The translations under genes and the position numbers were made by a program. From an uncultured Actinomycetes bacterium (GTDB lineage Bacteria > Actinomycetota > Thermoleophilia > Gaiellales > JAICJC01): a DNA stretch of 64,000 nt. Positions 3,012-61,726 of this stretch are shown one piece after another. The stretch lies in the NCBI GenBank assembly GCA_963727235.1, contig CAVSFZ010000017.1, forward strand, positions 9,407 through 73,406, read 5' to 3'. Below the pieces are notes generated by a model that was not told where the DNA came from, ran no database searches, and saw only the letters and a list, made by a program, of their open reading frames with translations. Within the stretch, counting starts at the first letter, position 1. Each line of letters begins with the position of its first letter.

Positions 3012-3040
3012 TGGATACCGGTGCCTGGCACCGGTATTCA
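3012..3040. repeat. palindromic repeat, copy a (most divergent): TGGATACCGGTGCC-T-GGCACCGGTATTCA
   Basis: Read directly from the sequence. It is a 14+14 nt inverted repeat with one mismatch. It shares the GGTGCCTGGCACC core and TATTCA arm with the six other copies. Confidence 0.85.
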
Positions 3041-3065
3041 CACGCCATCCACTACCTTCCCAAGC

Positions 3066-3695
3066 GTGATCCTGAGCCTCCTCTCCCTCACCAACGCCTT
3101 CGATTCGCTCGCAAACCTCGTCTCCGACTCTCCCTGGACGTACGCGCTGGTGCTCGGCCTGGCGGCGCTCGACGTGCTGTTTCCGGTGGTGCCGAGCGAG
3201 ACCGCGGTGATCCTTGCGGGAGTGCTGGCCGGCACAGGACATCTCAGCATTGAGCTTGTTCTGATCTCAGCAGCGGTGGGCGCCTTCATCGGCGACAACT
3301 CGGGCTACTGGGTGGGACGCACCGCCGGTAACAGCCGCGTGGCCCAGCGCCTGCTCACCGGCGATCGCAGGAAACAGGTGGACAAGGCGCAGGCGCAGAT
3401 CGAGACGCGCGGCGGGTACTTCATCATCATCGGCCGGTTCGTCCCTGGTGGCCGCACCGTGGTGGTGCTCGCCTGCGGCCTGCTCAAGATGCCGTGGGCG
3501 CGATTCATGGCATTCGACGCGGTTGCCGCCGTGATCTGGGCGCTCCAGGCAGGCCTCGCGGGATACTTCGGCGGCCGCGCCTTCGAGGACAACCCGTGGC
3601 TGGGGCTGCTGGTCGGAGTTGCCATCGCGACGGTGCTGATCGGCTCGGCGGAGGGCTGGCGGCGAGTGCGGGCGTGGAGGGCGAGGCGAAGCTAG
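3066..3695 (+). CDS. DedA family inner-membrane protein
   Basis: The in-frame GTG at 3066 gives 209 aa (VILSLLSLTNAFDSLANLVSDSPWTYALVLGLAALDVLFPVVPSETAVILAG...GRFVPGGRT), the DedA/SNARE-associated pattern. The longer ORF-track start would overlap the divergent ABC gene. Confidence 0.75.
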   Translation: MILSLLSLTNAFDSLANLVSDSPWTYALVLGLAALDVLFPVVPSETAVILAGVLAGTGHLSIELVLISAAVGAFIGDNSGYWVGRTAGNSRVAQRLLTGDRRKQVDKAQAQIETRGGYFIIIGRFVPGGRTVVVLACGLLKMPWARFMAFDAVAAVIWALQAGLAGYFGGRAFEDNPWLGLLVGVAIATVLIGSAEGWRRVRAWRARRS

Positions 3696-3711
3696 CCGCC
3701 CGGCGGCAGCC

Positions 3712-4350
3712 TCAGTGCGAGTGCGCGGGCTCGGCCCGGTGGATCGCTTCGATCAGCTCTTCGCGATCCATCACGATCAGATCCTTCATCGGGACGCCGA
3801 GCTCCTTGGCCTTGTCGAAGAGCGCCTGGCGAGGGAGGTCAGCCAGCGGATCGGGACCCTCGGGCGACGGCCGATCCGCCGCTTCGGCCTCGTGCGTCTC
3901 GGCGACCATCTCGAACTCCTGCGTCTCGGCCACCGCCTCTTCCTGAGATCTCACAGCCTCGACTCTGACCAGCTCGCGGGGCGGCTCCGGGCTGGTGGTC
4001 GGCTGAGGCTCGGAGGCGATATCGATCTCCTCCACATCGAAGGCACCCTGGCCGCTGAACACGCGGTATGCGAGCTCACCTTCCCATTCGGCTTCGGCGT
4101 TCCACTCGTCGTCGTCCTCGACGAGGTCCTCCGGCTCGTCGGCGGGCACTTCGACTTCGTCGACTTCCTCGACGACCTCGGTGCGCTCCTCAGCCTCCAA
4201 CACGGGCTCGGTGATCTCGGTCGCCTCAACGTCCTCGCCCAGGACGACCGCGGGCGCCGCGCTCTCGAGCCACCGCGCAGCAAAAATGCCTGCAAACACG
4301 GCTGCAAGAAGGACGAGCAAAAATGGCGGTTGGCTACGTGGCTTCATCAC
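3712..4350 (-). CDS. membrane-anchored, highly acidic protein with C-terminal Rho_N/SAP-like helix-hairpin
   Basis: N-terminal TM helix (PPFLLVLLAAVFAGIFAARWL), a long Glu/Asp/Val-rich low-complexity middle, and a C-terminus LFDKAKELGVPMKDLIVMDREELIEAI resembling the Rho N-terminal domain. Confidence 0.6.
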   Translation of the reverse strand: MMKPRSQPPFLLVLLAAVFAGIFAARWLESAAPAVVLGEDVEATEITEPVLEAEERTEVVEEVDEVEVPADEPEDLVEDDDEWNAEAEWEGELAYRVFSGQGAFDVEEIDIASEPQPTTSPEPPRELVRVEAVRSQEEAVAETQEFEMVAETHEAEAADRPSPEGPDPLADLPRQALFDKAKELGVPMKDLIVMDREELIEAIHRAEPAHSH

Positions 4351-4463
4351 TGTCGCGACCCCGGACCCTGCGCGCCGAGTTTAGCGCACAGACGGAGTCT
4401 CGCGGGGGCTGCGGTACGACACTCTCCGCCGTGACCACAGTCCCCGCGCTCCTCACCTCTCCA

Positions 4464-4537
4464 TCGGGGCGCCGAGATTTGAACTCGGGACCTCACCGAC
4501 CCGAACGGTGCGCGCTACCAGGCTGCGCCACGCCCCG
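4464..4537 (-). tRNA. tRNA-Pro (anticodon CGG)
   Basis: Hand-folded cloverleaf: acceptor CGGGGCG/CGCCCCG, D stem GCGC/GCGC, anticodon stem CACCG/CGGTG with loop TTCGGGT, T arm CCGAG-TTCAAAT-CTCGG, discriminator A. 74 nt, no encoded CCA. Confidence 0.9.
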
Positions 4538-4548
4538 GAGATCGCGGA

Positions 4549-4854
4549 TTATCGCACAGGAGGTTCGCCGGACCCGCCATCGGCGGCGGCGCGGCGGGCG
4601 TCCCGGTCACGGCGTGCGCAGAACGCGTCGAACGCCATCATCCGGCGAAGCCAGTCGTTCTGGGCTTCGACCTCGATGTCGTACAGCAGCCGGTCGAGTT
4701 CGAACCGGGCCACCGCCGCATCGAGCATCGCTTCGATCCGGGGACGCAGGCCGCGCATGTGCACGTGATCGAACGACGAGCGATCGATGCGCTCATCGTC
4801 GAGCGGTACCTCGTAGCCAGCAAGACGCTGGCCGAGCGAGCGCGCGGCCTTCAT
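4549..4854 (-). CDS. hypothetical protein
   Basis: 101-aa ORF with high GC3. I recognise no family. It is divergent from the Nif3 gene. Confidence 0.4.
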   Translation of the reverse strand: MKAARSLGQRLAGYEVPLDDERIDRSSFDHVHMRGLRPRIEAMLDAAVARFELDRLLYDIEVEAQNDWLRRMMAFDAFCARRDRDARRAAADGGSGEPPVR

Positions 4855-4931
4855 GGCGCGACTATGACCCCTTCGGCGATCGGCGTCTAGGGGTGGCAGT
4901 CAGGTCCACCCGTTCGGGTAGGGTGGGCGGG

Positions 4932-5690
4932 ATGGCCGACCGCGACGCGATTGTCGCCTTTTTGGACTCCCACCTCGATGTCCACGCCTACCCGGACCAC
5001 CTGCCGGTGGGCCTGCAGGTGCCCGGTGCGATCGAGGTCACCCGGGTCGCCACCGGCGTCTCATCCTCGCTCGAGCTGTTTCGCCGGGCAGGGAAGGCCG
5101 GTGCCCAGATGCTGATCGTCCACCACGGCCTCTTCTGGGACCGCGACCCACGTCGGATCGGGCCGCGCCAGAAGGAACGGCTGCAGAGCCTGTTTGAGAG
5201 CAACCTGTCGCTGGTCGCCTACCACCTCGCGCTCGACGCCCACCCCGAGGTGGGAAACAACGCGCTCATCTGCGACGCCCTCGAGCTCGGTGATCTGAAC
5301 GGCTTCGGCGGAGGCGGCGAGCGCACCATCGGCTTCATCGGCACCGCCAAACCGTCGATCTCACCCGAGCGCCTGATCTCGCGCGTGCGCGCCAAGATCA
5401 ACCCCGATCCGATCGCCTTCCTGCACGGCCCCGAGCGGATCCGCCGGGTCGCGGTCGTCTCCGGCGGGGCCGCCGACCTGCTCGACCAGGCCGCCGATGC
5501 CGGCGCCGACGCGTTCATCACCGGTGAGCCGAACGAGCCCGCCATGGCCCGCGCGCAAGAGGCCGGGATCCACTTCGTGGCCGCCGGCCACTACGCCACC
5601 GAGGTGTTCGGGGTGCAGGCTCTGGGAGAGTTGGTGTCACGCCAATTTGGGGTCGAGCACCGCTTCATCGACCTCCCCAACCGGGTGTAG
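4932..5690 (+). CDS. Nif3-like dinuclear metal centre protein (GTP cyclohydrolase 1 type 2 homologue)
   Basis: Start is trimmed to the ATG at 4932 (MADRDAIVAFLDSHLDVHAYPD). It has HHGLFW, AYHLALDAHPEVGNN and GHYATE motifs. Confidence 0.85.
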   Translation: MADRDAIVAFLDSHLDVHAYPDHLPVGLQVPGAIEVTRVATGVSSSLELFRRAGKAGAQMLIVHHGLFWDRDPRRIGPRQKERLQSLFESNLSLVAYHLALDAHPEVGNNALICDALELGDLNGFGGGGERTIGFIGTAKPSISPERLISRVRAKINPDPIAFLHGPERIRRVAVVSGGAADLLDQAADAGADAFITGEPNEPAMARAQEAGIHFVAAGHYATEVFGVQALGELVSRQFGVEHRFIDLPNRV

Positions 5691-5696
5691 CCAATG

Positions 5697-5725
5697 TTGA
5701 CGACGTCCGCCCAAGTGGGTAGTCT
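5697..5725 (+). promoter_or_regulatory. sigma-A type promoter TTGACG-17-TAGTCT
   Basis: -35 TTGACG at 5697-5702, a 17-nt spacer, and -10 TAGTCT (TANNNT) at 5720-5725. An ATG begins 7 nt after the -10 hexamer. Confidence 0.45.
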
Positions 5726-5731
5726 GTGAGC

Positions 5732-5828
5732 ATGATTACTGAAGCGGAGACGGCCTGACATTGGACGATCTCCGCTCACTGATGTCGGGAAGCTGAAGCC
5801 CACTGAGCAAGCGCTCGGTGGGTTTTTT
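5732..5828 (+). ncRNA. unclassified structured leader / small RNA ending in an intrinsic terminator
   Basis: The predicted transcript starts about 5732. Hairpin P1 pairs 5740-5750 (TGAAGCGGAGA) with 5769-5778 (TCTCCGCTCA). A terminator hairpin plus T6 lies at 5799-5828. It sits 24 nt upstream of a small HTH gene. Confidence 0.4.
5799..5828 (+). terminator. Rho-independent terminator
   Basis: 10-bp stem CCCACTGAGC / GCTCGGTGGG (one G-U pair), loop AAGC, followed by TTTTTT at 5823-5828. Confidence 0.6.
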
Positions 5829-5852
5829 CGTTCTCACACAGAAGGGAGAAGC

Positions 5853-6014
5853 ATGGCAAACCACCTGACGCCCGAAGAACTGTCCAAGGAGATGGGAATC
5901 AAGCGCGACGAGGTCATCCGGCTTTGTCACGAGCAGGCCGTCCCCATCTACCACGGCAAGATCGACAAGTTCCTGTTCTCCACCGTAGTCCAGGAGACGA
6001 CCGTCTCGGGCTAG
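5853..6014 (+). CDS. small (53 aa) helix-turn-helix protein, excisionase/BldC-like pattern
   Basis: It is not in the ORF track because it is under 60 aa. SD AAGGGAG lies 6 nt upstream. Sequence is MANHLTPEELSKEMGIKRDEVIRLCHEQAVPIYHGKIDKFLFSTVVQETTVSG. The LTxxEL..GI.R..V.RL pattern resembles HTH_17/MerR-type small DNA binders. Confidence 0.5.
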   Translation: MANHLTPEELSKEMGIKRDEVIRLCHEQAVPIYHGKIDKFLFSTVVQETTVSG

Positions 6015-6074
6015 GCAGGGCCCAGCCGACGGTTCTCCCTCGCGACGACCGCACCGTCGCGTAATCTGGAAAGT

Positions 6075-10015
<3,941 letters not shown>

Positions 10016-10077
10016 CACCGAGAATGCTAGTTGAGTGGGTCGAAATCCAATGCGGGGGTATCGCCGTATCTCCCAGC

Positions 10078-12284: not shown

Positions 12285-12335
12285 TTGACCGACTGTATTC
12301 AACCTGATAGTTTAGAACTCTACGGTTGAATACAG
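12285..12335 (+). promoter_or_regulatory. promoter TTGACC-17-TAGTTT overlapped by a 12-19-12 inverted repeat (probable ArsR-family operator)
   Basis: -35 at 12285-12290 and -10 at 12308-12313. CTGTATTCAACC (12293-12304) is the perfect inverted repeat of GGTTGAATACAG (12324-12335). SD AGGAG and the arsR-like ATG at 12343 follow. Confidence 0.55.
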
Positions 12336-12342
12336 GAGCTCG

Positions 12343-12696
12343 ATGCCCACCGATCAACTCAGCAGAACGTTCGCGGCCCTCGCCGACCCGACCAGGCGGG
12401 CGATGCTCACCCGCCTCTCCCAGGGCGAGGCCACCGTCGGTCAGCTGGCCGCCCCCTTCGACATGAGCTTTGCGGCGGTGTCCAAGCACCTGCGGGTGCT
12501 CGAGCACGCCGGCCTGGTCAGCCGGGGCCGCGACGCCCAGTACCGGCCGGCCCACCTCGAGGCGCGGCCGCTGGCCGCGGCATCCGAGTGGATCGGCGAC
12601 TACGCCCGCTTCTGGGGGGGCAACGTGGACGCGCTCGGCAGCTACCTGGAAACGCTTCAGCAACCACCCACACGCAAGGAGAACACCGATGACTGA
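12343..12696 (+). CDS. ArsR/SmtB family transcriptional regulator
   Basis: FAALADPTRRAMLTRLSQGEATVGQLAAPFDMSFAAVSKHLRVLEHAGLV, a winged HTH of the ArsR family. Confidence 0.9.
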   Translation: MPTDQLSRTFAALADPTRRAMLTRLSQGEATVGQLAAPFDMSFAAVSKHLRVLEHAGLVSRGRDAQYRPAHLEARPLAAASEWIGDYARFWGGNVDALGSYLETLQQPPTRKENTDD

Positions 12697-13929: not shown

Positions 13930-13960
13930 TGAATAAAAGGTGCCTGGCACCTTTTATTCA
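13930..13960. repeat. palindromic repeat, copy b: TGAATAAAAGGTGCC-T-GGCACCTTTTATTCA
   Basis: Perfect 15+15 nt palindrome, identical to copy f. It contains the truA stop codon (13954-13956) and lies 9 nt upstream of the surE start. Confidence 0.9.
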
Positions 13961-34838: not shown

Positions 34839-36755
34839 ATGAGGCTCGCGCTCGTGTCGACAACTGCCCTGCTAACGGCCGTATTCGTGGTCGGTGGCCC
34901 GGCCCTCGCTGTTGCTTCGGGCCCGCGCGCGGTGGTCCGGGTGAATCAGGTCGGATACCGCCCCGGAGACGCCAAACGGGCGGTGCTGCTGTCCACCGTC
35001 TCTGAGGCCGGAGCCCGGTTTGCGGTCGTGAACGCGGCCGGAACAACGATCCTGCGGGGTCAGGCCGGCCGCGCGCTGCCGGCCTGGAGTGGCCGGTACC
35101 GGTTCGCGCGGGTGATCGACTTCAGCGCCGCGCGCGCTCCAGGTGGCGCCCATATCGCGGTCACCGGCCCCGCCCGGGCCTCCTCACCGCGGTTTCGGAT
35201 CGAGACCAACGCCGCCCTGTACGCACCGCTGGTGCGAAACGCGGTGCGGTTCTACCAGTCCCAGCGGGACGGGCCGAACGTGATCGGAAGCGTGCTCGAC
35301 CGGCAGCCGTCCCACGCCAACGACGCGCACGCGGCGGTCACCGGCGCGCCGGTGTACCGGTACGACTCGCTCACGGGCGATCCGCCGCTCCTGGGCGGAA
35401 CGCACGACGTCTCCGGCGGGTGGTTCGACGCGGGTGACTACATCAAGCTGGTGCACACCACCAGCTACACCGAGGCGGTGCTCCTGACCGCCGTTCGGGA
35501 ACATCCCCAGAAGCTCTCGCAGCCGAATCGGAACCTGCGAGCCGAGGCCCGCTTCGGGCTGGACTGGCTCAACAAGATGTGGGACGACGCCGGCGGCACG
35601 CTCTACTACCAGGTGGGGATCGGCGACGGAAACGGGTGCGGCTCGATCTGCGGCGACCACGACATCTGGCGGCTGCCCCAGGTGGACGACACCTACGCCG
35701 GCAGCGATCCGCGGTTCAAGTACATCCGCAACCGCCCGGCGTTTCGGGCAGGTGCCGCCGGGCAGCTCGTCAGCCCCAACCTGGCGGGACGGCTGGCCGC
35801 CGACTTCGCGCTCTGTTATCAGGTGTACCGGGGCAGCAACCCCACCTTCGCCGCCGATTGCCTGCGCTCGGCCGAGCACGTGTTCGGGCTGGCGCGCACG
35901 TCGGGGATCCATCGGCTGCGCACCGCCTCGCCGTATGACTATTACCCGGAGACGCAGTGGCGCGACGACCTCGAGTACGGGGCGGCGGAGTTGACCCTCG
36001 CGCTGCAGGCCGGCAATCTCCCGAGCGGCTTGGCCCATACCGACCCGCTGTACTACCTGCGGCGGGCAAGCCACTGGGCCGGGAAGTACATGGCATCCTC
36101 CGACCAGGACTCACTGAACCTGTACGACGTGTCGGGGATCGCGCACGGCGAGCTGGCCGATGCGATCGTCGCCGCCGGGCATCCCGCCGGGCTGGAGACG
36201 ACGCGGGCAGCGCTGATCCGCAACCTGCGATCCAAGCTGGCTGCGGGCGTGTCCGAGTCTGCGTCCGACCCGTTCGGCTTCGGCGTCCAGTACGGGACGT
36301 GGGACGAGACGCCGCACGCGCTGGGGTACGCGTACGAGGCCGGCGAGTACGACCGGCTCACGCACACCAACACGTACGAGGCGTTTGGCCGCCGCCAGGT
36401 GGATTGGGTGCTTGGGCGGAACGCGTGGGGGTCATCGTTCGTGGTGGGCGCCGGGCGGGTGTTCCCCAAGTGCATGCAGAGCCAGATCGCCAACCTGTCC
36501 GGCTCGCTCAACGGGCGGCCGCCGCTGCAGCTGGGAGCGACCGTCGACGGCCCCAACCCCGCCGACGTCTTCACCGACCTGGGGCTACCGGGCGGAGCGC
36601 ACAGTTGCCCGGCAGGAGGCACAAACCGCTTCCGGCCCTTCGACGCCCGCGGCGCCCGCTACATGGACGACGCGCGGGCCTGGCCGAGCGTCGAGCCGAC
36701 GCTCGACTACACCGCGCTTGGCGTGCTGCTCTTCGCGAACCGCGCGCTTGGGTGA
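34839..36755 (+). CDS. secreted glycoside hydrolase family 9 (endoglucanase-like) with N-terminal Ig-like domain
   Basis: Start is trimmed to the ATG at 34839 (signal peptide MRLALVSTTALLTAVFVVGGPALAVASG). GH9 signature HDVSGGWFDAGDYIKL. It is the only plus-strand gene between 13.1 and 58.7 kb. Confidence 0.8.
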   Translation: MRLALVSTTALLTAVFVVGGPALAVASGPRAVVRVNQVGYRPGDAKRAVLLSTVSEAGARFAVVNAAGTTILRGQAGRALPAWSGRYRFARVIDFSAARAPGGAHIAVTGPARASSPRFRIETNAALYAPLVRNAVRFYQSQRDGPNVIGSVLDRQPSHANDAHAAVTGAPVYRYDSLTGDPPLLGGTHDVSGGWFDAGDYIKLVHTTSYTEAVLLTAVREHPQKLSQPNRNLRAEARFGLDWLNKMWDDAGGTLYYQVGIGDGNGCGSICGDHDIWRLPQVDDTYAGSDPRFKYIRNRPAFRAGAAGQLVSPNLAGRLAADFALCYQVYRGSNPTFAADCLRSAEHVFGLARTSGIHRLRTASPYDYYPETQWRDDLEYGAAELTLALQAGNLPSGLAHTDPLYYLRRASHWAGKYMASSDQDSLNLYDVSGIAHGELADAIVAAGHPAGLETTRAALIRNLRSKLAAGVSESASDPFGFGVQYGTWDETPHALGYAYEAGEYDRLTHTNTYEAFGRRQVDWVLGRNAWGSSFVVGAGRVFPKCMQSQIANLSGSLNGRPPLQLGATVDGPNPADVFTDLGLPGGAHSCPAGGTNRFRPFDARGARYMDDARAWPSVEPTLDYTALGVLLFANRALG

Positions 36756-36783
36756 ATAATGGTGCCTGGCACCAATTATTCAC
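36752..36783. repeat. palindromic repeat, copy c: GTGAATAAT-GGTGCC-T-GGCACCAATTATTCAC
   Basis: Read directly from the sequence. There is a one-base bulge in the left arm. The TGA of the left arm (36753-36755) is the GH9 stop codon. Confidence 0.9.
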
Positions 36784-36894
36784 CGCTTACGCCCAGTGGT
36801 GGTCACATTGCGGAAGGCGTGCCGGATGGACATGCCGGCGCACGTCCGATTTCGATCGTAGAGTCTCACAGCGGGCTGCGACAGCTCGCGACGG

Positions 36895-37080
36895 CTAGGA
36901 GCAACGACTGGACCGCCGCTTCAACTCCACCGTAGCGACGACCAGGAGGCCGCTAACGAGACCGAACGCAGCATCTCCATAGTCAGTCGTTCCAAACCAC
37001 AGCCAGTTGATCGAGGTTGAGATCGCCACCCCACCCAGGGGGGCCACAACCCAACGCCACTTCGAGTCAAAGACATTCAT
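36895..37080 (-). CDS. small (61 aa) two-TM membrane protein, hypothetical
   Basis: Start is trimmed to the ATG at 37080, with GAGG 6 nt upstream. Sequence is MNVFDSKWRWVVAPLGGVAISTSINWLWFGTTDYGDAAFGLVSGLLVVATVELKRRSSRCS. It lies 28 nt downstream of the secreted-protein gene. Confidence 0.5.
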   Translation of the reverse strand: MNVFDSKWRWVVAPLGGVAISTSINWLWFGTTDYGDAAFGLVSGLLVVATVELKRRSSRCS

Positions 37081-37108
37081 GACGACCTCGGAACCCCCGG
37101 TGTTGGGG

Positions 37109-38050
37109 CTAGGCGCAATGGCTCGTCCAAGCTCGATCGAACTTGCCCCCGTAGTAGAAACTGAGATTAAGGCGACAGTGTGGGTGGAAGTAGTGATCGA
37201 CATACGTGCGAAGAAGTGCAACGACGCCCGCCGCCCCCGCCCCGCAGAGCACAGCGCCGGGGCCGAGTTCCATGCAGACAGCGGTTCCGACAACCACCGC
37301 AAGGGCGTACGATCCGTTCTTGAGAGCGACTTGGTCGAGTGGGGAGAGTTCCACAGTGAACGTCGTCCAGTGGAGGTGCACCGACGGGTCAGCTTTCACG
37401 GGGAACGCTGTCTGCGATGTGAAGTCAACCACCTGCACCACGGTGGTTCCGTTAACTTCGAAATGGGTCGGCACAGAGTTCCCATTTGCGTCCGTCGCCC
37501 ACGGGGCGTCGATCTTCCCAAGTTCGTTCCCAGTCGGGTCGAAGAGGACAAGGCTTCCGTCCGCCTGTTGATCGATCCGAGCGACATCGCCCGAGATCGG
37601 GAACGCATACCGCCGAGGTGCCGAGGCATCGTTGATGGACACGAGCGCACGCACTCCATCGGGGATCGCCTGAACGGCGAAGTCACTCGCGTCTGTCTGC
37701 CCGTCGTAAACGACCGTGCCTCCGACTTTGGTGGCAGATGCGTCGTCGGTGGGGAGTGAGAGGGACACCGATGTCCCGTCCCCGGATGCGGTCACCGCGT
37801 CGTCAGAATCCCGGGGAATCTCCAATGTCCCGCCGCCGACCGCAGCCGTGAAATCATCGGGCGTCGCCGAAACCGGGGCAGCCGCAACCCCACCCTGGTC
37901 AGCAACCGCGGCCGCAGTGTTCTCCTGGATCTCACGTGGACTGAGACCGGAAGTCTCCGCCACGGCTGAGCCGGGAACCAACGCAACCAGCCCGACTCCA
38001 AGAAGAATCGGTAGTACGAGGAGCCGTGGGGACGAGCATTTGATAGGCAT
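37109..38050 (-). CDS. secreted hypothetical protein (313 aa), Cys-containing C-terminal region
   Basis: Signal peptide MPIKCSSPRLLVLPILLGVGLVALVPGSAVA. A conserved-looking IDAPWATDANGNSVPTHFEV block. Four Cys in the last 60 aa. Local GC is visibly lower than the flanks. Confidence 0.6.
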   Translation of the reverse strand: MPIKCSSPRLLVLPILLGVGLVALVPGSAVAETSGLSPREIQENTAAAVADQGGVAAAPVSATPDDFTAAVGGGTLEIPRDSDDAVTASGDGTSVSLSLPTDDASATKVGGTVVYDGQTDASDFAVQAIPDGVRALVSINDASAPRRYAFPISGDVARIDQQADGSLVLFDPTGNELGKIDAPWATDANGNSVPTHFEVNGTTVVQVVDFTSQTAFPVKADPSVHLHWTTFTVELSPLDQVALKNGSYALAVVVGTAVCMELGPGAVLCGAGAAGVVALLRTYVDHYFHPHCRLNLSFYYGGKFDRAWTSHCA

Positions 38051-38057
38051 ACCCGTG

Positions 38058-38086
38058 ACACTATCTTCAGACTCAAATCACAGCAA
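38058..38086 (-). promoter_or_regulatory. candidate promoter TTGCTG-17-TAGTGT placed for a leaderless transcript of the secreted-protein gene
   Basis: Minus strand reads cTTGCTGtgatttgagtctgaagaTAGTGTcacgggtATG, with 7 nt between the -10 hexamer and the ATG at 38050. Confidence 0.35.
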
Positions 38087-38160
38087 GATCCTAGTGTAAC
38101 AGTAGTGTGACAACACCTGTCAGGGTCCGTATGGCTCGCAAACGGCAGCCTTCTGCAACG

Positions 38161-38189
38161 TGAATAACGGTGCCTGGCACCGTTATTCA
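38161..38189. repeat. palindromic repeat, copy d: TGAATAACGGTGCC-T-GGCACCGTTATTCA
   Basis: Perfect 14+14 nt palindrome. Confidence 0.9.
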
Positions 38190-38250: not shown

Positions 38251-38282
38251 TGAAGTAATTGGTGCCTGGCACCAATTATTCA
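38251..38282. repeat. palindromic repeat, copy e1: TGAAGTAATTGGTGCC-T-GGCACCAATTATTCA
   Basis: It has one extra G in the left arm and abuts copy e2. Confidence 0.9.
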
Positions 38283-38319
38283 GGGGTGAATAACGGTGCC
38301 TGGCACCGTTATTCACCCC
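38283..38319. repeat. palindromic repeat, copy e2 with GGGG/CCCC clamp: GGGGTGAATAACGGTGCC-T-GGCACCGTTATTCACCCC
   Basis: Perfect 18+18 nt palindrome ending 7 nt before the rpoC stop codon (38327-38329). Confidence 0.9.
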
Positions 38320-38326: not shown

Positions 38327-42835
<4,509 letters not shown>

Positions 42836-51015: not shown

Positions 51016-51018
51016 CGG

Positions 51019-54584: not shown

Positions 54585-54646
54585 CGTCTGCGTGTGGTTG
54601 CGTCCGATCGTTCGCCCGGAGCGAACGTCGATCGCACACCACGCGA

Positions 54647-55312: not shown

Positions 55313-55356
55313 CCCTACATTCTATCTGGGAGAGGCACCTCCGTGACGGGGTAACC

Positions 55357-55390
55357 GTGCTGGGAGGAGCAACTTCGCTCCTCCCAGCAC
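55357..55390 (-). terminator. 14-bp perfect hairpin 17 nt downstream of rplL (operon-end terminator candidate)
   Basis: GTGCTGGGAGGAGC (55357-55370), loop AACTTC, GCTCCTCCCAGCAC (55377-55390). There is no U-tract on the rplL strand. Confidence 0.5.
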
Positions 55391-55407
55391 CAATCAAGCG
55401 GCAAACG

Positions 55408-55782
55408 CTACTTGACCTCGACGGTTGCCCCGGCCTCCTCGAGCTTGGCCTTGATCTGGTCGGCCTCTTCCTTGGCGACGCCCTCCTTGACGGGCTTGGG
55501 AGCCTCGTCGGCGACCGCCTTGGCCTCCTTCAGGCCGAGCCCCGTGATCTCGCGGATGACCTTGATCACCGGGATCTTGTTGGGACCGGTCTCGGCCAGT
55601 ATCACGTCAAACGCCGTCTGCTCCTCGGCGGCCTCAGCAGCACCACCGCCGCCACCGCCGCCGGCAACCGCCACCGGAGCAGCCGCAGCAGCGCTCACGC
55701 CCCAGCGCTCTTCCAGTTCCTTCTTCAGATTGACGAGCTCGAGAACGGTCATCTCCTCGAGCTGCTCAGCTGTAACAGCCAT
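55408..55782 (-). CDS. rplL: 50S ribosomal protein L7/L12
   Basis: [29 protein letters not shown]...[16 protein letters not shown]. Confidence 0.97.
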
Positions 55783-55794
55783 GATCTCTCCTGT

Positions 55795-56325
55795 CTAGGC
55801 GGCCTCGGCCGCCTGTCGCTTTTCGATGTACTGATCGAGCACCACCAGGAACTCCCTGAGCGGTGCTGCGAGGGTGTTGTACGAGCCCTGCAGCGGCGAG
55901 GCCAAAGCCCCCACCACCTGCGCCTGGAGCACGTCGCGGGGCGGCAGATCACCGAGCTGTCGCACCTCGTCGGCCGTCAGCGTCTCGCCTTCGATGATCG
56001 CTCCGCGCACCTCCAAGATGCGCGTCTGGCGGGCGATCTCGCTGAGCTTCTTGGCAGCCCCAGCGGGGTCGTCGGTGACAAACGCGATCGCCGTCGGGCC
56101 CTGGAGCAAGGCCACCAGATCAGGCTTTTCCGCCTGGCCGGCGGCGATCCGGGCCAACGTGTTCTTGGCCACGGTCAGGCTTGCACCCGCCTCCCGCAAC
56201 TGATTTCGCACGTCGGCCAGCTGACCCACGCTGAGCCCGCGGTAGTCGGTCACGATCATCGAGTCCGCCCCGCGGATCATCTCGGTCAGCTTCTCGACCG
56301 CCGCGCGCTTCTCAGTCACATTCAT
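55795..56325 (-). CDS. rplJ: 50S ribosomal protein L10
   Basis: I chose the ATG at 56325, which lies 8 nt after AAGGAGG. The GTG at 56334 overlaps the SD. Sequence: MNVTEKRAAVEKLTEMIRGADSMIVTDYRGLSVGQL. Confidence 0.92.
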   Translation of the reverse strand: MNVTEKRAAVEKLTEMIRGADSMIVTDYRGLSVGQLADVRNQLREAGASLTVAKNTLARIAAGQAEKPDLVALLQGPTAIAFVTDDPAGAAKKLSEIARQTRILEVRGAIIEGETLTADEVRQLGDLPPRDVLQAQVVGALASPLQGSYNTLAAPLREFLVVLDQYIEKRQAAEAA

Positions 56326-56482
56326 GCACTTCACCTCCTTCGGTTCGTCGGGCGTCCACCTGGTGGTGGACGCGCACGAACCGAGAAGGTCGTACGAGGC
56401 CCCACCTGCGTCGGGTGTTTCGGTTTGAGCCCTGAGGCCCCGACGGTCTTCGGCGCGGACGCGATGTGAACAAGTCGTTGGT
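56326..56482 (-). promoter_or_regulatory. structured 5' leader of rplJ-rplL (candidate L10 autoregulatory leader)
   Basis: Nested hairpin directly abutting the SD: CGGTTCG(56341-47)/CGAACCG(56377-83) enclosing GCGTCCACC(56352-60)/GGTGGACGC(56365-73). A second 7-bp stem CGTCGGG/CCCGACG lies further upstream. Confidence 0.35.
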
Positions 56483-57193
56483 CTAGCTGGGAGTCTCCTC
56501 GAGCAGATCTCGAGTGCGGGTGGTGTCGAGGTGGATCCCCGGCCCCATCGTCGACGCCATCGTCACCGACTTCAGGTACCGGCCCTTGGCGGCGGCGGGC
56601 TTGACCCGCAGGATCTCCTCCAGCACCGCACCGTAGTTCTCGACCAGCGCCCGCTCATCGAACGACTTTTTGCCGATCGCGGTGTGCACGATCGCGGTGC
56701 GATCGGTGCGGTACTCGATCTTGCCGGACTTGATGTCCGAAACCGCCTTGCTGACATCGAAGGTGATGGTGCCGGCCTTGGGGCTCGGCATCTTGCCCTG
56801 CGGCCCGAGTACGCGGCCGAGCTTCCCGACGGTGCCCATCATGTCGGGCGTGGCGATCGCCACGTCGAAGTCCGAGAAGCCCTCCAGCACCTTGGCGGCG
56901 AGGTCCTCACCGCCGACATGATCGGCGCCGGCCTCCTCGGCCTCCTTGGCCTTCTCGCCCTGGGCGAACACGGCCACGGTCACCGAGGTGCCCGTGCCGT
57001 GCGGGAGGAACAGGGTGCCGCGAAGCTGCTGCTCGGCGTGACGGACGTTCAGGCCCAGCCGCATGTGCACCTCGACGGTCTCGTCGAACTTGGCCGTCTG
57101 CAGCGTCTTGAGCACCCGCACTGCATCCAGCGGCGCGTACAGCTTCTCGCGGTCGACCGCCTCGCGGGCAGCCTTGTATGCCTTGCCCGCCAT
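56483..57193 (-). CDS. rplA: 50S ribosomal protein L1
   Basis: [29 protein letters not shown]... Confidence 0.95.
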
Positions 57194-57621
57194 CAGCCCA
57201 CCACCTCCACACCCATCGAACGGGCGGTGCCGGCGATGATGTTGACCGCCGCATCCACGTCGTTGGCATTCAGGTCCGGCATCTTGGTCTCGGCGATCGA
57301 GCGCAGCTGGGCCTTGGTGATCCTGCCGACGGTCTCGCGGTTGGGCTCGCCAGAGCCCGCGGTGATGTTGAGCGCCTCCTTGATCAGCACCGCGGCCGGG
57401 GGCGTCTTGGTAATGAACGAGAACGACCGGTCCTCGAACACGCTGATCTCGACCGGGGTGACCCGGCCGTTGTTGGGGCCCTGCGTCTGGGCGTTGAACG
57501 CCTTGCAGAACTCCATGATGTTGACGCCGTGCTGACCCAGCGCGGGGCCCACCGGCGGGGCGGGGTTCGCCTGCCCTGCGGGGATCTGAAGCTTGATCAC
57601 CTTGATGATCTTCTTTGCCAT
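57193..57621 (-). CDS. rplK: 50S ribosomal protein L11
   Basis: [43 protein letters not shown]. Confidence 0.97.
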
Positions 57622-57682
57622 TCCGTCTCCTTAGTGGTGCATGCGCGCCTCGAACGAGACGCTCCCACGATCGTGAGTGAAG

Positions 57683-58213
57683 CTAGATCTTCTTGACTTT
57701 GTCGAACTCCAGCTCGACCGGCACCTGACGCTCGAAGATCGAGACCAGCACCTTGAGCTTGCCCTGATCCTCGTTGATCTCGGCGATCTCGCCGTCGAAG
57801 TCTGCCAGCGGGCCGGAGGTGACCTTGACGCTCTCGCCCAGCTCGAACTCGGCCCGGCTCTTCTGAGGCGCCTGGGCGACGGCCTGGGCGACGTGCAGCA
57901 TACGGTCGACCTCGGGTTGGCTGAGCGGCACCGGCTTGTTCTGGGAGCCGACGAAGCCGGTCACGCCGGGAGTGTTCTTGACCAACACCCAGGCGTCATC
58001 GGTGAGATCCATGTTGACCAGCACGTATCCGGGCCACAGCCGGCGCTCGGTCTGCACCTTCTGGCCGTCCTTGGTCTCGACCACCGACTCGGTGGGGACG
58101 ACAATCCGGCGCACGACATTCTCTTGGCTCATCGATTTGACGCGGTGCTCGAGATTGGCCTTGACCTTGTTCTCGTGCCCCGAGTAGGTGTTGATCACGT
58201 ACCAGCGAAACAT
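57683..58213 (-). CDS. nusG: transcription termination/antitermination factor NusG
   Basis: MFRWYVINTYSGHENKVKANLEHRV and a C-terminal KOW GESVKVTSGPLADFDGEIAEIN. Confidence 0.95.
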   Translation of the reverse strand: MFRWYVINTYSGHENKVKANLEHRVKSMSQENVVRRIVVPTESVVETKDGQKVQTERRLWPGYVLVNMDLTDDAWVLVKNTPGVTGFVGSQNKPVPLSQPEVDRMLHVAQAVAQAPQKSRAEFELGESVKVTSGPLADFDGEIAEINEDQGKLKVLVSIFERQVPVELEFDKVKKI

Positions 58214-58232
58214 GTCCGTCCTTCGGCGCGGG

Positions 58233-58532
58233 TCAGTTTTGGAAATCGATCAGTCGCGTGGCGAGCCGCGCGAACAGCTGATCGAGACCGTACAGGTAGA
58301 GGCCGACCAGGAAGCAGGCGCCCAGCACGACCAAGGTCGCCTGGATCGTCTGCTGCCGGTTGAGGTAGTCGACTTTTGCGAGCTCGGCACGGACCTCACC
58401 GCTGAAGGCAAGGGTGCGCCGGTAGAGGCTCTTTTTTGCAACCGGCGCCCCGCCGGACTGGCTCTTCGCCCTCCCGGTTGTGGGAGCGGCCAAGCTGGTG
58501 CGAGACGACTGTCGATTCTTGTTTCGAGCCAT
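58233..58532 (-). CDS. secE: preprotein translocase subunit SecE
   Basis: Basic N-terminus, then GEVRAELAKVDYLNRQQTIQATLVVLGACFLVGLYLYGLD. It sits immediately upstream of nusG. Confidence 0.85.
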   Translation of the reverse strand: MARNKNRQSSRTSLAAPTTGRAKSQSGGAPVAKKSLYRRTLAFSGEVRAELAKVDYLNRQQTIQATLVVLGACFLVGLYLYGLDQLFARLATRLIDFQN

Positions 58533-58544
58533 GGGCGATCGCGG

Positions 58545-58709
58545 TTAGCGAGTCTCTCGGTGCGGAGTGTGCTTTCCGCACCACCGGCAGTACTTCGAGA
58601 ACTCGATCCTGTCAGGCGAGTTTCGCTTCGATTTGTTGGTTTGGTAGTTGCGCCGCTTGCATTCCGTGCAGGCAAGCGTCACATCCACTCGAACACCGGT
58701 CTTGGCCAC
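58545..58709 (-). CDS. rpmG: 50S ribosomal protein L33
   Basis: Start is trimmed to the GTG at 58709, with GAAGGAG upstream. Sequence is [53 protein letters not shown]. Confidence 0.9.
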
Positions 58710-58801
58710 CGCGGAGGCACTCCTTCTTCGACAGGGAAGTACGGGCGCGACGTACGCGCCGATCAGGCAGGATACACGCGTTGACCAGACCTGAGCCCCC
58801 A

Positions 58802-59602
58802 ATGCGCGCGATCGAACTCGATCAGGTGTCGTACTGGCGGTTCAACCGGCGCACGGGCAGTCGCGACCAGATCTTGCGTGAGATCGACTGGCAAGTGGCC
58901 GCCGGGCAGCGCTGGACGGTGCTCGGCCCAAACGGCGCCGGCAAGAGCACGCTGTCGACGATCGCCGCCGCGCTCGGCCACCCCAGCTCGGGCACCGCCA
59001 CCATCCTGGGCGGGCGGCTGGGGGCGATCGACATGCGCGCCCTGCGCGAGCGGATCGGGTTCCTGGAGCCGAAAGCTGCCCGCCGCTTCTCCTCCATCCT
59101 GAGCTCTGCAGACGTCGTCCTGACCGGCGTCACCGCAACCTTCGTGGTGCGTCCCGACCGGCTCGGTAAGGCCGATCGCGAACGCGCCCAGCACCTGCTC
59201 GAGCGCTTCGGTATCGGTGAGCTGGCCACCCGTGCGCTGGGCACCCTGTCCCAGGGCGAGCGTCAGCGGGTGCTGCTGGCGCGGGCGCTGGTGGGCGACC
59301 CCGAGCTGCTGGTGCTGGACGAGCCGGCGGCCGCACTCGACCTCCCCGGCCGCGAGAGCGTGGTGGCTGCGCTGGAGGCCATCGCGGCCGATCACCCCGA
59401 TCGCACCACCGTCACTGTCACCCATCACGTCGAGGAGATTCCGCCCTCCACCACCCACGGGCTGCTGCTGCGCGACGGCGCCGTGACCGCCGCCGGGGCG
59501 ATCGCCCCGGTGCTGGCCGACGAGCCGATGAGCGCGTGCTTCGGGGCACCCGTGCGGATGCGGCGTGACGACGACGGTCGCTGGCTGGCGCGGGTTAGCT
59601 AG
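58802..59602 (+). CDS. ABC-type ATPase without adjacent permease (ModF/YlmA-like)
   Basis: Start is trimmed to the ATG at 58802. [36 protein letters not shown]. Confidence 0.8.
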
Positions 59603-59784
59603 TCGACACGAGTCGCGTACACCCACAGGATCACGCCGACCGTCATGAAGGCCGCCCCCGCGGTGATCAGCACGTGGCTGATCGTGACCGACGACGCGAC
59701 GAATCCAACTGCCGTCATCGCCACCCCGATCGCGAACACGACCTCGGTACGCACCCGCCGCCGATTCCCACGCGTCTGCACCAC
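59599..59784 (-). CDS. small (61 aa) two-TM membrane protein, hypothetical
   Basis: [61 protein letters not shown]. It lies 13 nt downstream of the AAA+ ATPase gene and shares a CTAG stop overlap with the convergent ABC ATPase gene. Confidence 0.5.
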   Translation of the reverse strand: MVQTRGNRRRVRTEVVFAIGVAMTAVGFVASSVTISHVLITAGAAFMTVGVILWVYATRVD

Positions 59785-59797
59785 CCAAGGGTATCGC

Positions 59798-60973
59798 TCA
59801 GGCGTAGGTGCGGCGCATGTACCGGTGAAACTGCGGAACCGTGAACGCGGTCAGGCCGTGGCCCGGGGTGTACAGCAGGCCCTTGTCGATCAGCCGTGCG
59901 CGGGTCGGGCCCAGCTGCTCGGAGCGGCGGTGCATGGCCTCGGCCACATCGCCCGTTCGATGAGGCCCGTGTCCCAGCTCGGCCATCACCCGCAGGTACT
60001 GGAGCTCCAGCTCGGTGGTGCGCTGCGTCCGCACCCGAAAGAAGCTCTCGTCCAGCGTGGCCTCGACCAGCGGGCGGGCGGCCTCGGCCGAGGCCAGCGT
60101 GATCTCGGTGTCGGCGGGCGCCAGATTCCAGACGATCTTGCCGTACTCCTGCAGGAAGTACGGGTAGCCCTCGGTGTATCTCACGATCAGGTCGACGGCG
60201 TCGGGGCTGAACGCCACGTCCAGCTCGGCCGCGGGCCGGGTGAGCGCCTCGCGGGCCTCGCGCTCGAGTCCCAGCCGGCCGATGTGGGGAAACCGGAACA
60301 GCCGCTCGGCGTAGGACTTGGCATCCCCCGCGAGCCGCGGGATCTGGGGCAGTCCGGCGCCGACCAGGGTCACCGGCAGGCTTCGCTGGACGGTCTTGTG
60401 CAGCGCCATGATCAGCCCCTCCAGCTCGGCCGGACGCAGGAACTGCACCTCGTCGATCAGAAACGCGACCCCGGTGCGGTGCTCGCGGGCGGCCTCTCCC
60501 AGAGCGATGAAGAGGTCGGTGAGGTCGTCACTGAGGTGGCCGCTGTCGGCGATTCCCGGGAGTGCCTCGACATCCAGCCCGGCCGTCAGCGTGCCTTCGC
60601 TCGAGACCGTCACCTGAAACGACTTGAGGATGCTCGCGGCCCGGCTCATGCGCTCACCCCAGCCCGCCCTGGGAGCGATCTGCAGCAGTGCCCGCCGCGA
60701 AAGCATCGCCATCCGCCGGCCGAACTCCTCGTTCTTGGTGATCTCGGCCTCGACGCTGACCCAGCCGCCCGAACGGGCGCGAGCTTCGAACTCGTTCAGC
60801 AGCACCGTCTTTCCGACGCCCCGCAGCCCGGTGATCAGCATCGATTGCTCGGTGTAGCCACGGGTCAGACGGGCCAGCAGGACATCGAACGCCTCCAGCT
60901 CGGCATCCCGGCCCACCAGCGCCGCCGGCCGAGCGCCGGCATTGGGTGTGTACGGGTTGAGACGGGGATCCAC
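59798..60973 (-). CDS. orphan AAA+/STAND-like ATPase with C-terminal winged-helix-like region (ORC/Cdc6- or Arch_ATPase-like)
   Basis: GTG start at 60973. LVGRDAELEAFDVLLARL, then Walker A GLRGVGKT, Walker B VAFLIDEVQ, and a C-terminal ELELQYLRVMAELG...TRARLIDKGLLY. Confidence 0.7.
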   Translation of the reverse strand: MDPRLNPYTPNAGARPAALVGRDAELEAFDVLLARLTRGYTEQSMLITGLRGVGKTVLLNEFEARARSGGWVSVEAEITKNEEFGRRMAMLSRRALLQIAPRAGWGERMSRAASILKSFQVTVSSEGTLTAGLDVEALPGIADSGHLSDDLTDLFIALGEAAREHRTGVAFLIDEVQFLRPAELEGLIMALHKTVQRSLPVTLVGAGLPQIPRLAGDAKSYAERLFRFPHIGRLGLEREAREALTRPAAELDVAFSPDAVDLIVRYTEGYPYFLQEYGKIVWNLAPADTEITLASAEAARPLVEATLDESFFRVRTQRTTELELQYLRVMAELGHGPHRTGDVAEAMHRRSEQLGPTRARLIDKGLLYTPGHGLTAFTVPQFHRYMRRTYA

Positions 60974-60982
60974 GATCGCATC

Positions 60983-61028
60983 TTATCGTGCTTATCACTA
61001 TTTATCGAACGTTGATAAAGTCGGATAA
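60983..61028. promoter_or_regulatory. phased array of five TTATC/GATAA boxes (three direct, two inverted) in an AT-rich upstream region
   Basis: TTATC at 60983, 60992 and 61002. GATAA at 61014 and 61024. Spacing is 9-12 bp. TTTATC-N7-GATAAA inverted repeat at 61001-61019. Confidence 0.45.
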
Positions 61029-61043
61029 ATCTGAAAAGACCGG

Positions 61044-61682
61044 TCACGCCGCCGACGGGTGGATCAGCGGCACCACCGGATCCCACCCCGCCCGCAGGAC
61101 GTCCACCAGCGAGCGCGGCGTCAACACGGTGGCATCGCCCGACCGCGCGCGCGTCCGGCGCTCGGTGTACCCCGCAGGCGTCCACGCCATCAACTGATCG
61201 CCCCACACCAGGTGCGGCTGCCACTGGCACAGCACGAACGCCCCGTCAGGCAGCCGATCCCACAGGTCGGTGTGACGACGCTGAGACTGGGTGACCGGCT
61301 CGATTCGCTCGAACTGCAACTGGGCATCGATGGCATCGGCGCCGATCTGGCCGGGATGGATCTCCCGCCAGATCTCACCGAAGCGGTTGTAGTCCTCCCG
61401 CCGGCACAACGCGCACGGCCGGTGGCCCGCCGCAAAGGCGGTGGCCTCGTCCAGGAAGAACAGCTCGGTGAAGCGACCCGGCTGCATCATCGGCCCGCGC
61501 TGCCACCCCCGGAACTCGAGCCTGCAGGCGATCCATCGGCGGCCGTTGTAGCGCCGCCGGATCCGCTGCTGGGAATCGTGCAGGCACCCGCGGTTCCCGT
61601 ACACCAACCCCCGGCCCGGATCCGCCACCAACTCACTCAGCGGCGTCACCCGGTTCTGTAACAACCTGTCACAACTCCGCAC
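61044..61682 (-). CDS. conserved-looking hypothetical protein with Cys/His cluster
   Basis: 212 aa. GNRGCLHD...RWIACRLEF...FTELFFLDEATAFAAGHRPCALCRREDY. I can name no family. Confidence 0.55.
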   Translation of the reverse strand: MRSCDRLLQNRVTPLSELVADPGRGLVYGNRGCLHDSQQRIRRRYNGRRWIACRLEFRGWQRGPMMQPGRFTELFFLDEATAFAAGHRPCALCRREDYNRFGEIWREIHPGQIGADAIDAQLQFERIEPVTQSQRRHTDLWDRLPDGAFVLCQWQPHLVWGDQLMAWTPAGYTERRTRARSGDATVLTPRSLVDVLRAGWDPVVPLIHPSAA

Positions 61683-61695
61683 CGATCAATGCCTG

Positions 61696-61726
61696 TGAAT
61701 AAAAGGTGCCTGGCACCTTTTATTCA
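61696..61726. repeat. palindromic repeat, copy f: TGAATAAAAGGTGCC-T-GGCACCTTTTATTCA
   Basis: 31/31 identical to copy b. It lies between the DUF1697 gene stop (61738) and the start of the 61044-61682 gene. Confidence 0.9.

Follow-up and report, generated by a model that had tools for sequence, protein, structure and literature searches.

What is the short, AT-armed palindrome that recurs seven times, in nearly the same letters, along a contig of an uncultured Actinomycetes bacterium of the order Gaiellales? The stretch in question (64,000 nt; positions 9,407 to 73,406 of the forward strand of CAVSFZ010000017.1, assembly GCA_963727235.1) is referred to here as the window. An initial annotation, made before any database search, likened the palindrome to REP/BIME-type elements or to a family of bidirectional terminators. 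We find that it is a discrete hairpin-forming repeat, gained and lost without target duplication, which is tolerated at gene ends and, in one reading frame, inside proteins, and that the family is restricted to a subclade of uncultured Gaiellales (Thermoleophilia, Actinomycetota). It is probably a palindrome of the REP/TRIT kind, confined to this lineage and either mobile or copy-converted, that serves as a hairpin at 3' ends, whether as terminator, attenuator, or mRNA stabilizer.

The exact 13-nt core GGTGCCTGGCACC occurs seven times in the window, starting at positions 3020, 13939, 36761, 38169, 38261, 38295, and 61705 (copies a, b, c, d, e1, e2, and f), in agreement with the seven copies annotated initially. 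Dinucleotide-preserving shuffles of the window give 0.27 core matches with at most one mismatch by chance, and the observed number was reached in 0 of 100 shuffles. Linkers of 2–4 nt join every core to a left arm, (G)TGAATA, and a right arm, TATTCA(C). The arms had been described as uniform, which is true of most copies but not of copy a, which has TGGATA, or of e1, the left arm of which carries a 1-nt insertion. At the 67% GC of the window both hexamers are nearly private to the palindrome, with 5 of 7 occurrences of TGAATA and 7 of 9 of TATTCA lying inside copies, and an arms-only search of the window found no further copy with another core.

The genome-wide search that had been suggested in the initial annotation was carried out with its pattern, in which the core is fixed, on 185,579 species genomes, with sequence blocks of up to 8 kb taken around the matches. 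Further copies were found in at least 95 stretches, almost all of them from metagenome-assembled genomes (MAGs) of uncultured Actinomycetes, Gaiellales, or Thermoleophilia. Unless loci seeded by proteins are named, the family-wide counts given below refer to the matches listed (at least 95 stretches) together with the window, ~0.8 Mb of sequence. These contain 125 copies with an exact core, and the matches listed represent ~17 MAG species, plus three doubtful singletons in unrelated MAGs. In loci fetched through homologs of window proteins rather than through the palindrome, the unbiased density is one copy per 11.9 kb, which extrapolates to roughly 300 copies per genome of 3.5–3.8 Mb. The core is invariant over genomes of 67–74% GC. 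By contrast with its abundance in these genomes, 62 kb from Gaiellales with a SurE protein 66–77% identical to that of the window (the window SurE itself has no exact record, and its homologs come from relatives labeled "Gaiellales bacterium" at source) held 0 copies and 0 TGAATA hexamers. The core was also found in none of 80 metagenomic rpoC loci of at most 76% identity, a result that is uninformative on turnover. Rfam searches of the window at the gathering threshold and of 36.7–38.4 kb at E ≤ 1 returned only tRNA and chance miRNA matches. A full-text literature search with the core sequence recovered only unrelated eukaryotic papers, and one for "Gaiellales palindromic repeat" recovered none. 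The REP/BIME-like dispersed family initially suspected is therefore borne out, being lineage-wide, biased to gene 3' ends, and in part arranged as composite doublets.

The consensus of the family is (G)TGAATA, a linker, GGTGCC-W-GGCACC, a second linker, and TATTCA(C), with a unit length of 31–35 bp. The linkers are 2–4 nt long and are mirrored between left and right, the pairs being AAC/GTT, AAAA/TTTT, AAAT/ATTT, AATT/AATT, ACC/GGT, AACC/GGTT, and ATCC/GGAT. Dominance of a linker type is genome-specific: in one genome 19 of 24 copies are of the AAC type, in another 12 of 18 are of the AAAT type, and ACC-like linkers dominate the genomes of higher GC. Because linker subtypes differ between genomes in this way, they are a possible strain-typing or lineage marker for Gaiellales. 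In a gap-free alignment of 42 distinct copies of equal length, used alongside fuzzy-pattern searches, 91% of cells pair, the observed covariation was matched in 0 of 500 shuffles, and the three linker pairs comprise CG, UA, AU, and UG types. Rarer variants covary inside the arms as well (TGCATA/TATGCA and TGACT/AGTCA), and the borders are sharp, pairing falling to chance level 4–5 nt outside TGAATA. Each copy is predicted to fold into a hairpin with a GC-rich top (GGUGC/GCACC) closed by a 3-nt loop, a paired variable linker in the middle, and an AU-rich base (UGAAUA/UAUUCA), with a minimum free energy (MFE) between −18 and −33 kcal/mol. The proposal that the linker always changes on both sides together thus holds for the family, although copy c departs from it, with AAT on the left versus AATT on the right and a 1-nt bulge. 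The companion claim that the palindrome and not the primary sequence is conserved applies to the 2–4 nt of linker only: core and arms are conserved in sequence in ~17 species, which indicates sequence-specific recognition or recent copying. The central 5 nt read CCWGG, a Dcm/EcoRII-type site, and GGTGCC and GGCACC fit GGYRCC. In two loci the 3' arm is tandemly duplicated, with CGTTATTCAC present twice in L068 (5905–5945) and CCATTTATTCA twice in L067 (1957–1990). Slippage or template switching at the hairpin could have left these duplications behind.

The palindrome also has a weak polarity, carried mainly by its central base. All seven window copies have the central T on the + strand, a regularity unremarked in the initial annotation. 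When the copies of the family are oriented by this T, wobble pairs are U(5')·G(3') in 19 cases and GU in 1. Beside the core G·T outnumbers A·C by 28 to 4, C·A pairs being missing on the central-T strand. This bias comes mainly from a subfamily, TGAATATTT-core-GRNTATTCA, of genomes with 70–72% GC, and since it is mostly one subfamily the polarity may be inherited rather than selected. The central-T strand is antisense to the locally dominant gene strand in 55 cases versus 28 (Fisher p = 0.011, copies within a locus being non-independent). In tandem contexts it is antisense in 27 of 39 (p = 0.024), and in the window in 7 of 7. Orientation is not significantly associated with GC skew (p = 0.08). 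The central base is variable at one orthologous site: at site c it is T in the window and A in L183.

These features bear on whether the palindrome acts as a strand or as a duplex. It could be argued that the copies are duplex DNA sites bound by a protein dimer (a global regulator, a nucleoid-associated protein, or a roadblock or topology factor) and that the palindrome reflects the symmetry of that protein. Gyrase and IHF bind REP/BIME elements, core and arms are strictly conserved in sequence, and one copy lies between divergent promoters. Against such sites, the non-consensus bases of the linker are mirrored on both sides, and linker length shifts of 2–4 bp in total would turn one outer half-site with respect to the other around the duplex. 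G·T is preferred over A·C on one strand (UG 19 vs GU 1; 28 vs 4), and divergent regions hold 3 copies compared with 93 in convergent or tandem ones. Mirrored changes of linker length together with mirrored non-consensus bases therefore argue for a single-stranded stem, and we consider a duplex site for a dimeric protein quite unlikely.

Comparison of orthologous intergenic regions, another check that the initial annotation had proposed, shows sites that are filled, empty, or occupied by another linker type among close relatives. L018 is filled and reads ...GGG TGA ATAATT-core-GATTAT TCA GAC..., whereas L094 and L055 are empty and read ...GGT TGA G CTA GAC...; the outer TGA and TCA of the palindrome in L018 occupy both original stop-codon positions. 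Similarly, L074 and L043 are filled and L081 is empty. The difference between filled and empty orthologous sites is a clean 24-bp indel. Site b has linkers AAAA/TTTT in the window and AATT/AATT in L178 (SurE 97% identical) and is empty in L179–L182 (87–89%), L182 having a copy at the 3' end of surE instead. Site c, which has AAT/AATT and a central T in the window, has AAC/GTT and a central A in L183 and L184 (GH9 95% identical), and is empty in L185 and L186, where TAA or TAG stands at that codon. Copy d is present in the window only, among five syntenic genomes. Sites b, c, and d thus differ between genomes whose neighboring proteins are 84–97% identical. The flanks carry no sign of target-site duplication, with identical direct flanks of 2 nt at 11 of 111 copies (a frequency read as about chance, not calculated), of 3 nt at 1, of 4 nt at 1, and of 5 nt at 0 of 111. 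In the protein-seeded loci L178–L186 and L189 (contigs of the ERZ250395xx series in ENA), many conserved genes, such as those for rpoB, rpoC, EF-Tu, and ribosomal proteins, are split into several open reading frames (ORFs). Because these split genes look like long-read frameshift errors, single-base differences there, such as those of e1 in L184, need caution.

The same data address the idea that the copies are DNA-uptake signals or the ends of insertion sequences (ISs) or of miniature inverted-repeat transposable elements (MITEs). Inverted pairs of uptake sequences in Neisseria form terminator-like palindromes, and the density of copies here is high. The half-sites, however, are essentially never alone: there are 120 left and 118 right half-sites and 112 strict full copies, and nearly all of the 14 half-sites outside strict copies, which at first appear solo, belong to slightly degenerate full copies. 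We ruled out DNA uptake sequences (DUS) and uptake signal sequences (USS) on this ground, the motif not being single. The IS alternative raised in the initial annotation fares no better. The arms enclose no internal DNA beyond the 13-nt core, there are no target-site duplications, and 2.9 million viral contigs gave 0 matches, so that MITE or IS terminal inverted repeats were likewise ruled out. Taken together, signals or ends of this sort are extremely improbable. Integron attC sites lie in cassette arrays beside intI and are bounded by RYYYAAC and GTTRRRY. They were excluded by inspection, as GTTATTC misfits GTTRRRY, GAATAAC misfits RYYYAAC, and the copies are scattered by housekeeping genes (rpoC, truA–surE) instead of being arrayed.

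The placement of the copies follows the reading frames that they close. By context, as judged with a crude codon-usage gene caller, 54 copies are convergent, 39 tandem, and 3 divergent. Within 60 nt of a copy, 99 gene ends point toward it; 33 have the TGA of the arm as their stop and 19 its TAA (GAA-TAA), so that 52 of 99 adjacent gene ends use a stop codon of the palindrome itself; a further 8 abut the copy and 39 stop 4–60 nt upstream. Whichever strand is read, the TGAATAA arm closes two of three frames, and the third frame reads EY(P/S)VPGT(G/K)YS. Three clear cases among 125 have the palindrome in this frame within real genes. One lies in the linker that joins the biotin carboxylase domain of an acyl-CoA carboxylase to its biotinyl domain. 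Another separates the two domains of a SpoU methylase, of which an ortholog lacks the segment and has an unrelated, shorter linker, and the third is within a shikimate dehydrogenase. In the window, 6 of 7 copies, including the intercistronic b and f, lie at gene 3' ends, which upholds the initial statement that most copies are 3' of genes; copy a, in a divergent promoter region, does not conform. The stronger statement that all copies are intergenic requires correction, since 3 nt of b and 3 nt of c are coding. An AAC-type copy and an AATT-type copy, 0–17 nt apart, form doublets that recur at non-orthologous loci and resemble the composites of BIMEs. The two units of a doublet mostly have the same orientation, which can be read from the central base alone.

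Could the copies simply be bidirectional intrinsic terminators that evolved in place, remained immobile, and came to look alike by convergent selection? The order of A-rich arm, GC hairpin, and U-rich arm on both strands would suit such terminators, as would their location after stop codons and the stack of three after rpoC. Yet termination does not require an identical 13-nt core and arms in >100 copies and ~17 species, nor does it account for three in-frame copies in ORFs, one copy in a promoter region, or filled and empty orthologous sites separated by a clean 24-bp indel. Furthermore, none of the copies is picked out by a consensus terminator scan. Folded by itself, the GC core hairpin reaches an MFE of −5.6 kcal/mol, and with the linker included about −10 kcal/mol. 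The 8 nt that follow this core hairpin contain 4–6 U, depending on type, but they are paired with the A-rich arm. Terminators evolved in place are thus very unlikely as the source of the family. Canonical terminator-like sites in the window are not above shuffle expectation; the sole convincing one lies at 5795–5826 (+ strand), with a 14-bp stem followed by TTTTTT, and a tRNA gene is found at 4464–4537 (− strand).

The harder question is whether the copies do anything for their hosts. They may be purely selfish or neutral, in which case the 3'-end bias and the arm stops would only show where a 31-bp insertion with stops in two of three frames is tolerated in a compact genome. We regard this account as unlikely. 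In its favor are the rapid turnover at sites b, c, and d among close relatives, the in-frame copies within genes, the copy inside a divergent promoter region, the lack of a copy at most convergent junctions of the window, and the expansion in each genome of its own linker type. Other sites do not behave in this manner. The e2/e1 doublet past rpoC is retained, with identical sequence, in four genomes (the window and L183–L185) with GH9 proteins 84–95% identical to that of the window, and L186 has a single copy there. Within this doublet e2 is unchanged, including its GGGG/CCCC extension, in the window, L183, L184, and L185. Copy e1 is intact in L183, degenerate in L184 with mismatches in the core and right arm, and replaced in L185 by an AAAT/ATTT copy at a different spacing. 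A more distant relative, at 76%, has an unrelated GC hairpin in place of the copies at the rpoC end. An orthologous copy is also kept near-unchanged in L037, L048, and L061 at only ~75% flank identity, and the core does not vary between 67 and 74% GC; both count against a neutral passenger.

We therefore favor the REP/TRIT-like reading named at the outset, in which a lineage-restricted palindrome spreads and is retained as a 3'-end hairpin. On this reading each copy folds as a single strand into a hairpin, and over short evolutionary times copies come, go, or are exchanged for ones with another linker type. Spread may occur by hairpin-dependent single-strand transposition of the IS200/RAYT type, or by copy conversion or template switching between copies. 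Single-strand spread by an HUH enzyme (RAYT/IS200-type) would fit because there are no target duplications and because of the hairpin dependence; copy conversion or template switching would also account for the paired linker changes and for the type swaps at one site. Surviving copies would be those in places where they are tolerated or useful, mostly gene 3' ends, where the TGA or TAA of the arm often provides the stop codon, and a few would occupy protein linkers in the open frame. After transcription the hairpin would most likely act as E. coli REPs do, by attenuating or terminating transcription in both directions and by blocking 3'-to-5' exonucleases, and the e2–e1(–d) stack would then mark the end of the rpoBC transcript. 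By analogy with REPs, the copies in 3' untranslated regions (UTRs) may be at once partial terminators and stabilizers of mRNA. A role at gene termini is likewise possible by analogy with TRIT, and the stack after rpoC would fit it.

Several observations weigh against this preferred reading. Only about one-fifth of the convergent junctions in the window carry a copy, and most are without one. The consensus terminator scan that flagged no copy counts here too, and copies b and f must be read through, because the next start codon is 8–13 nt away and leaves no room for a promoter. The proposed function is further weakened by the finding that TRIT sites, on which it is in part modeled, overlap little with 3' ends mapped by Term-seq (bioRxiv 10.1101/2022.06.01.494293). 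As for mobility, E. coli RayT used as a phmmer query on the 7,530 ORFs in the window and the 95 listed loci (~0.8 Mb) gave no match at E ≤ 10, and Y1_Tnp is absent from the Pfam lists of the 12 protein-seeded loci (L178–L189). The RAYT/IS200-type gene contemplated in the initial annotation was thus not found, a negative that is weak because only ~1.1 Mb was covered, a small fraction of each of many genomes. Clustering of the genes beside copies showed no enriched family, the only sizeable cluster consisting of FAD oxidoreductase/GcvT paralogs. In addition, the palindrome differs from REP, BIME, and REPIN elements in having no GTAG tag and in carrying near-symmetric GTGAATA/TATTCAC arms at both ends, as part of the stem. 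Finally, the compensatory linker changes could have arisen through template switching in a quasi-palindrome and not through selection on structure. A terminator role and a link to a RAYT are accordingly unproven, and the function proposed for the family is hypothetical.

A more far-reaching reading, which we offer tentatively and consider rather doubtful, is that the family represents a third REP-like kind, symmetric, AT-armed, and bearing neither the GTAG nor the CGTC tag. Such a family would be moved or homogenized by non-RAYT means, either a hairpin-specific enzyme or template switching and copy conversion. Its hosts would have adopted it as a portable module for gene ends that works in both directions and supplies stops (TGA and TAA on both strands) together with a terminator or stabilizer hairpin, and a lineage-specific factor would read the invariant GGUGCC-W-GGCACC stem, as has been suggested for TRIT. 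If this were true, the polarity of the copies (U·G and not C·A, with the central-T strand usually antisense) would mark the active strand.

The individual copies illustrate the range of contexts within one genome, the − strand of the window encoding rpoB, rpoC, the S10, spc, and alpha ribosomal operons, EF-G, and EF-Tu. Copy a (3012..3040, + strand; TGGATACC-GGTGCCTGGCACC-GGTATTCA) is the most degenerate of the seven, its TGGATA arm giving one G·T pair, and has a predicted MFE of −24.5 kcal/mol on the + strand and −22.9 kcal/mol on the − strand. The 79-bp divergent promoter region that has copy a at its center separates an ABC ATPase gene (start 2986, − strand) from a DedA/VTT gene (GTG at 3066). 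The ATPase gene belongs to an ABC-2 permease and ATPase pair (1542–2986) that sits between aminotransferase and DedA genes. The pair is absent in the syntenic L179, L180, and L182, where aminotransferase and DedA are adjacent. Copy a marks the edge of this insertion, whereas in L179 and L180 it is the 3' end of DedA that has a copy.

Copies b and f share one sequence. Copy b (13930..13960, + strand; TGAATAAAA-core-TTTTATTCA) separates truA from surE, two − strand genes. The stop codon of truA (13954–13956, − strand) is the TGA of the arm, which accounts for the 3-nt overlap with coding sequence, and the ATG of surE (13921) is 8 nt beyond the copy. Copy f (61696..61726, + strand; TGAATAAAA-core-TTTTATTCA) has a DUF1697 gene on one side and a 212-aa ORF of unknown function on the other, again both on the − strand, and is situated 11 nt past the DUF1697 stop (61738) and 13 nt ahead of the longest-ORF start of the next gene (61682). 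Their identity over 31 of 31 nt at a distance of 48 kb, pointed out initially, extends to 33 nt when one flanking base per side is included. An inverted repeat at 12296–12336 (TGTATTCAAC-N21-GTTGAATACA), within a 214-bp intergenic gap, is operator-like and unrelated to the family despite containing TATTCA and TGAATA.

The remaining copies cluster between the GH9 endoglucanase gene and rpoC. Copy c (36752..36783, + strand; (G)TGAATAAT-core-AATTATTCA(C)) is situated at the 3' end of the GH9 gene (+ strand), and the GH9 stop TGA (36753–36755) is the first triplet of its arm, again with a 3-nt coding overlap. The first hairpin after rpoC is copy e2 (38283..38319, + strand; GGGGTGAATAAC-core-GTTATTCACCCC), which begins 7 nt past the rpoC stop (38327–38329, − strand) and has an 18-bp stem and a predicted MFE of −32.6 kcal/mol on both strands. 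It is followed by e1 (38251..38282, + strand; TGAAGTAATT-core-AATTATTCA) as the second hairpin and by copy d (38161..38189, + strand; TGAATAAC-core-GTTATTCA) as the third, the latter being upstream of the promoter region that serves a gene for a secreted protein.

Between copies c and d the window (36790–38160) has lower GC and a low coding score. It contains a secreted-looking ORF of 313 aa (37109–38050, − strand) and a membrane ORF of ~62 aa (~36893–37081, − strand), which have no Pfam match. In L185 this stretch is only 140 bp, and in L183 and L184 it holds a different set of small membrane ORFs with a copy at each gene junction. Because its contents differ between L183–L185 and the window, we regard the gap between GH9 and rpoC as a hot spot for small palindrome-bracketed cassettes. 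A similar bracketed cassette is present in L069 (3896–4686), 455 bp of which are missing in L023, a 92% relative. Upstream of such genes for small secreted or membrane proteins, the motif TGTGACAACAC is found in the window (~38095–38125) and in L069 (4655–4672), and L183 (~12655–12680) has TGTAACAACACTGTTACA, an inverted repeat. The shared motif looks like an operator or promoter element. Elsewhere, arrays of ~160–410-bp repeats in which a palindrome copy ends each unit are found in L006 (4380–4800), L087 (4890–5200), and L088 (180–840). The flanks of the array units are conserved, with ACGGCCTTTGGCC before the copy and TCCACCCTGGCGGTGGTG after it, the units have an internal GGGGACA...TGTCCCC hairpin, and the L006 array also holds a copy with a different core, TGAATATGCAGTGCTTGCACGGCGTATTCA. 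The array units have no Rfam match and could represent a small-RNA gene present in repeats, or else a composite element of larger size.

How, then, does the family compare with known systems? REP-like families have been characterized mostly in Proteobacteria; in Actinomycetota the main analog is TRIT, the function of which is unsettled. Some in-frame copies occur in conserved genes, here as EY(P/S)VPGT(G/K)YS in inter-domain linkers, as they do in the case of Rickettsia palindromic elements (RPE). Those elements are 100–150 bp long and lie mainly in genes, whereas the Gaiellales unit is 31–35 bp with only 3 clear in-gene cases among 125. Inverted DUS and USS pairs of Neisseria and Pasteurellaceae are likewise repeated sequences that form palindromes downstream of genes. 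Uptake sequences are mostly single 10–12-mers, however, and the Gaiellales half-site is essentially never found alone.

REPs are palindromes of 20–40 bp that occupy gaps between convergent or unidirectional ORFs, with termini that supply stop codons, copies within ORFs, G·T pairs in the stem, and dimers (PMC3733652). In 3' UTRs they have a dual role as attenuators and mRNA stabilizers (bioRxiv 10.64898/2026.03.23.713779). The Gaiellales family shares with REP, BIME, and REPIN elements the short imperfect palindrome, the hundreds of copies (here extrapolated), the same gene contexts, the stop-supplying ends, the G·T pairs, and the doublets. It differs in that the base of its palindrome is AT-rich in genomes of 67–74% GC, in that the palindrome is almost perfect with polarity mainly in the central base, in that no RAYT was found in the sequence covered, in that doublets are mostly head-to-tail by central base, and in its host, an uncultured actinobacterial order. 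Two REP superfamilies have been described, defined by a GTAG or a CGTC end tag (PMC3733652). With the CGTC-tagged superfamily the Gaiellales palindromes have in common that they are abundant and that searches found no dedicated transposase flanked by repeats (PMC3733652 for the CGTC-tagged REPs). They are distinguished by end tag and sequence, and by the hosts of CGTC-tagged REPs being mostly Proteobacteria and Rickettsia. Since neither the GTAG nor the CGTC tag is present and no RAYT was seen, we file the family as REP-like and outside the REP–RAYT system.

TRIT is a palindromic motif of Mycobacterium with 147 copies in M. tuberculosis, mostly bidirectional and lineage-restricted. Its position is tight relative to the stop codon, overlapping the coding end at about −8, and an unknown factor recognizing the stem has been proposed (PMC3152330). 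The two families share an actinobacterial host, a palindrome conserved in both sequence and structure, overlap with stop codons, and confinement to one lineage. The host lineages differ, and the likeness drawn here is one of description. On that basis TRIT is, by analogy, the closest functional analog. We conclude that the Gaiellales palindrome is a new family of a REP-like kind, which adds no new category of biology and would not surprise a specialist. For the annotation of soil MAGs it is a landmark of gene ends, operon boundaries, and recent indels. As a second, independent actinobacterial family that overlaps stop codons, it suggests that gene-end marking by such palindromes is general in high-GC genomes that are poor in canonical terminators.

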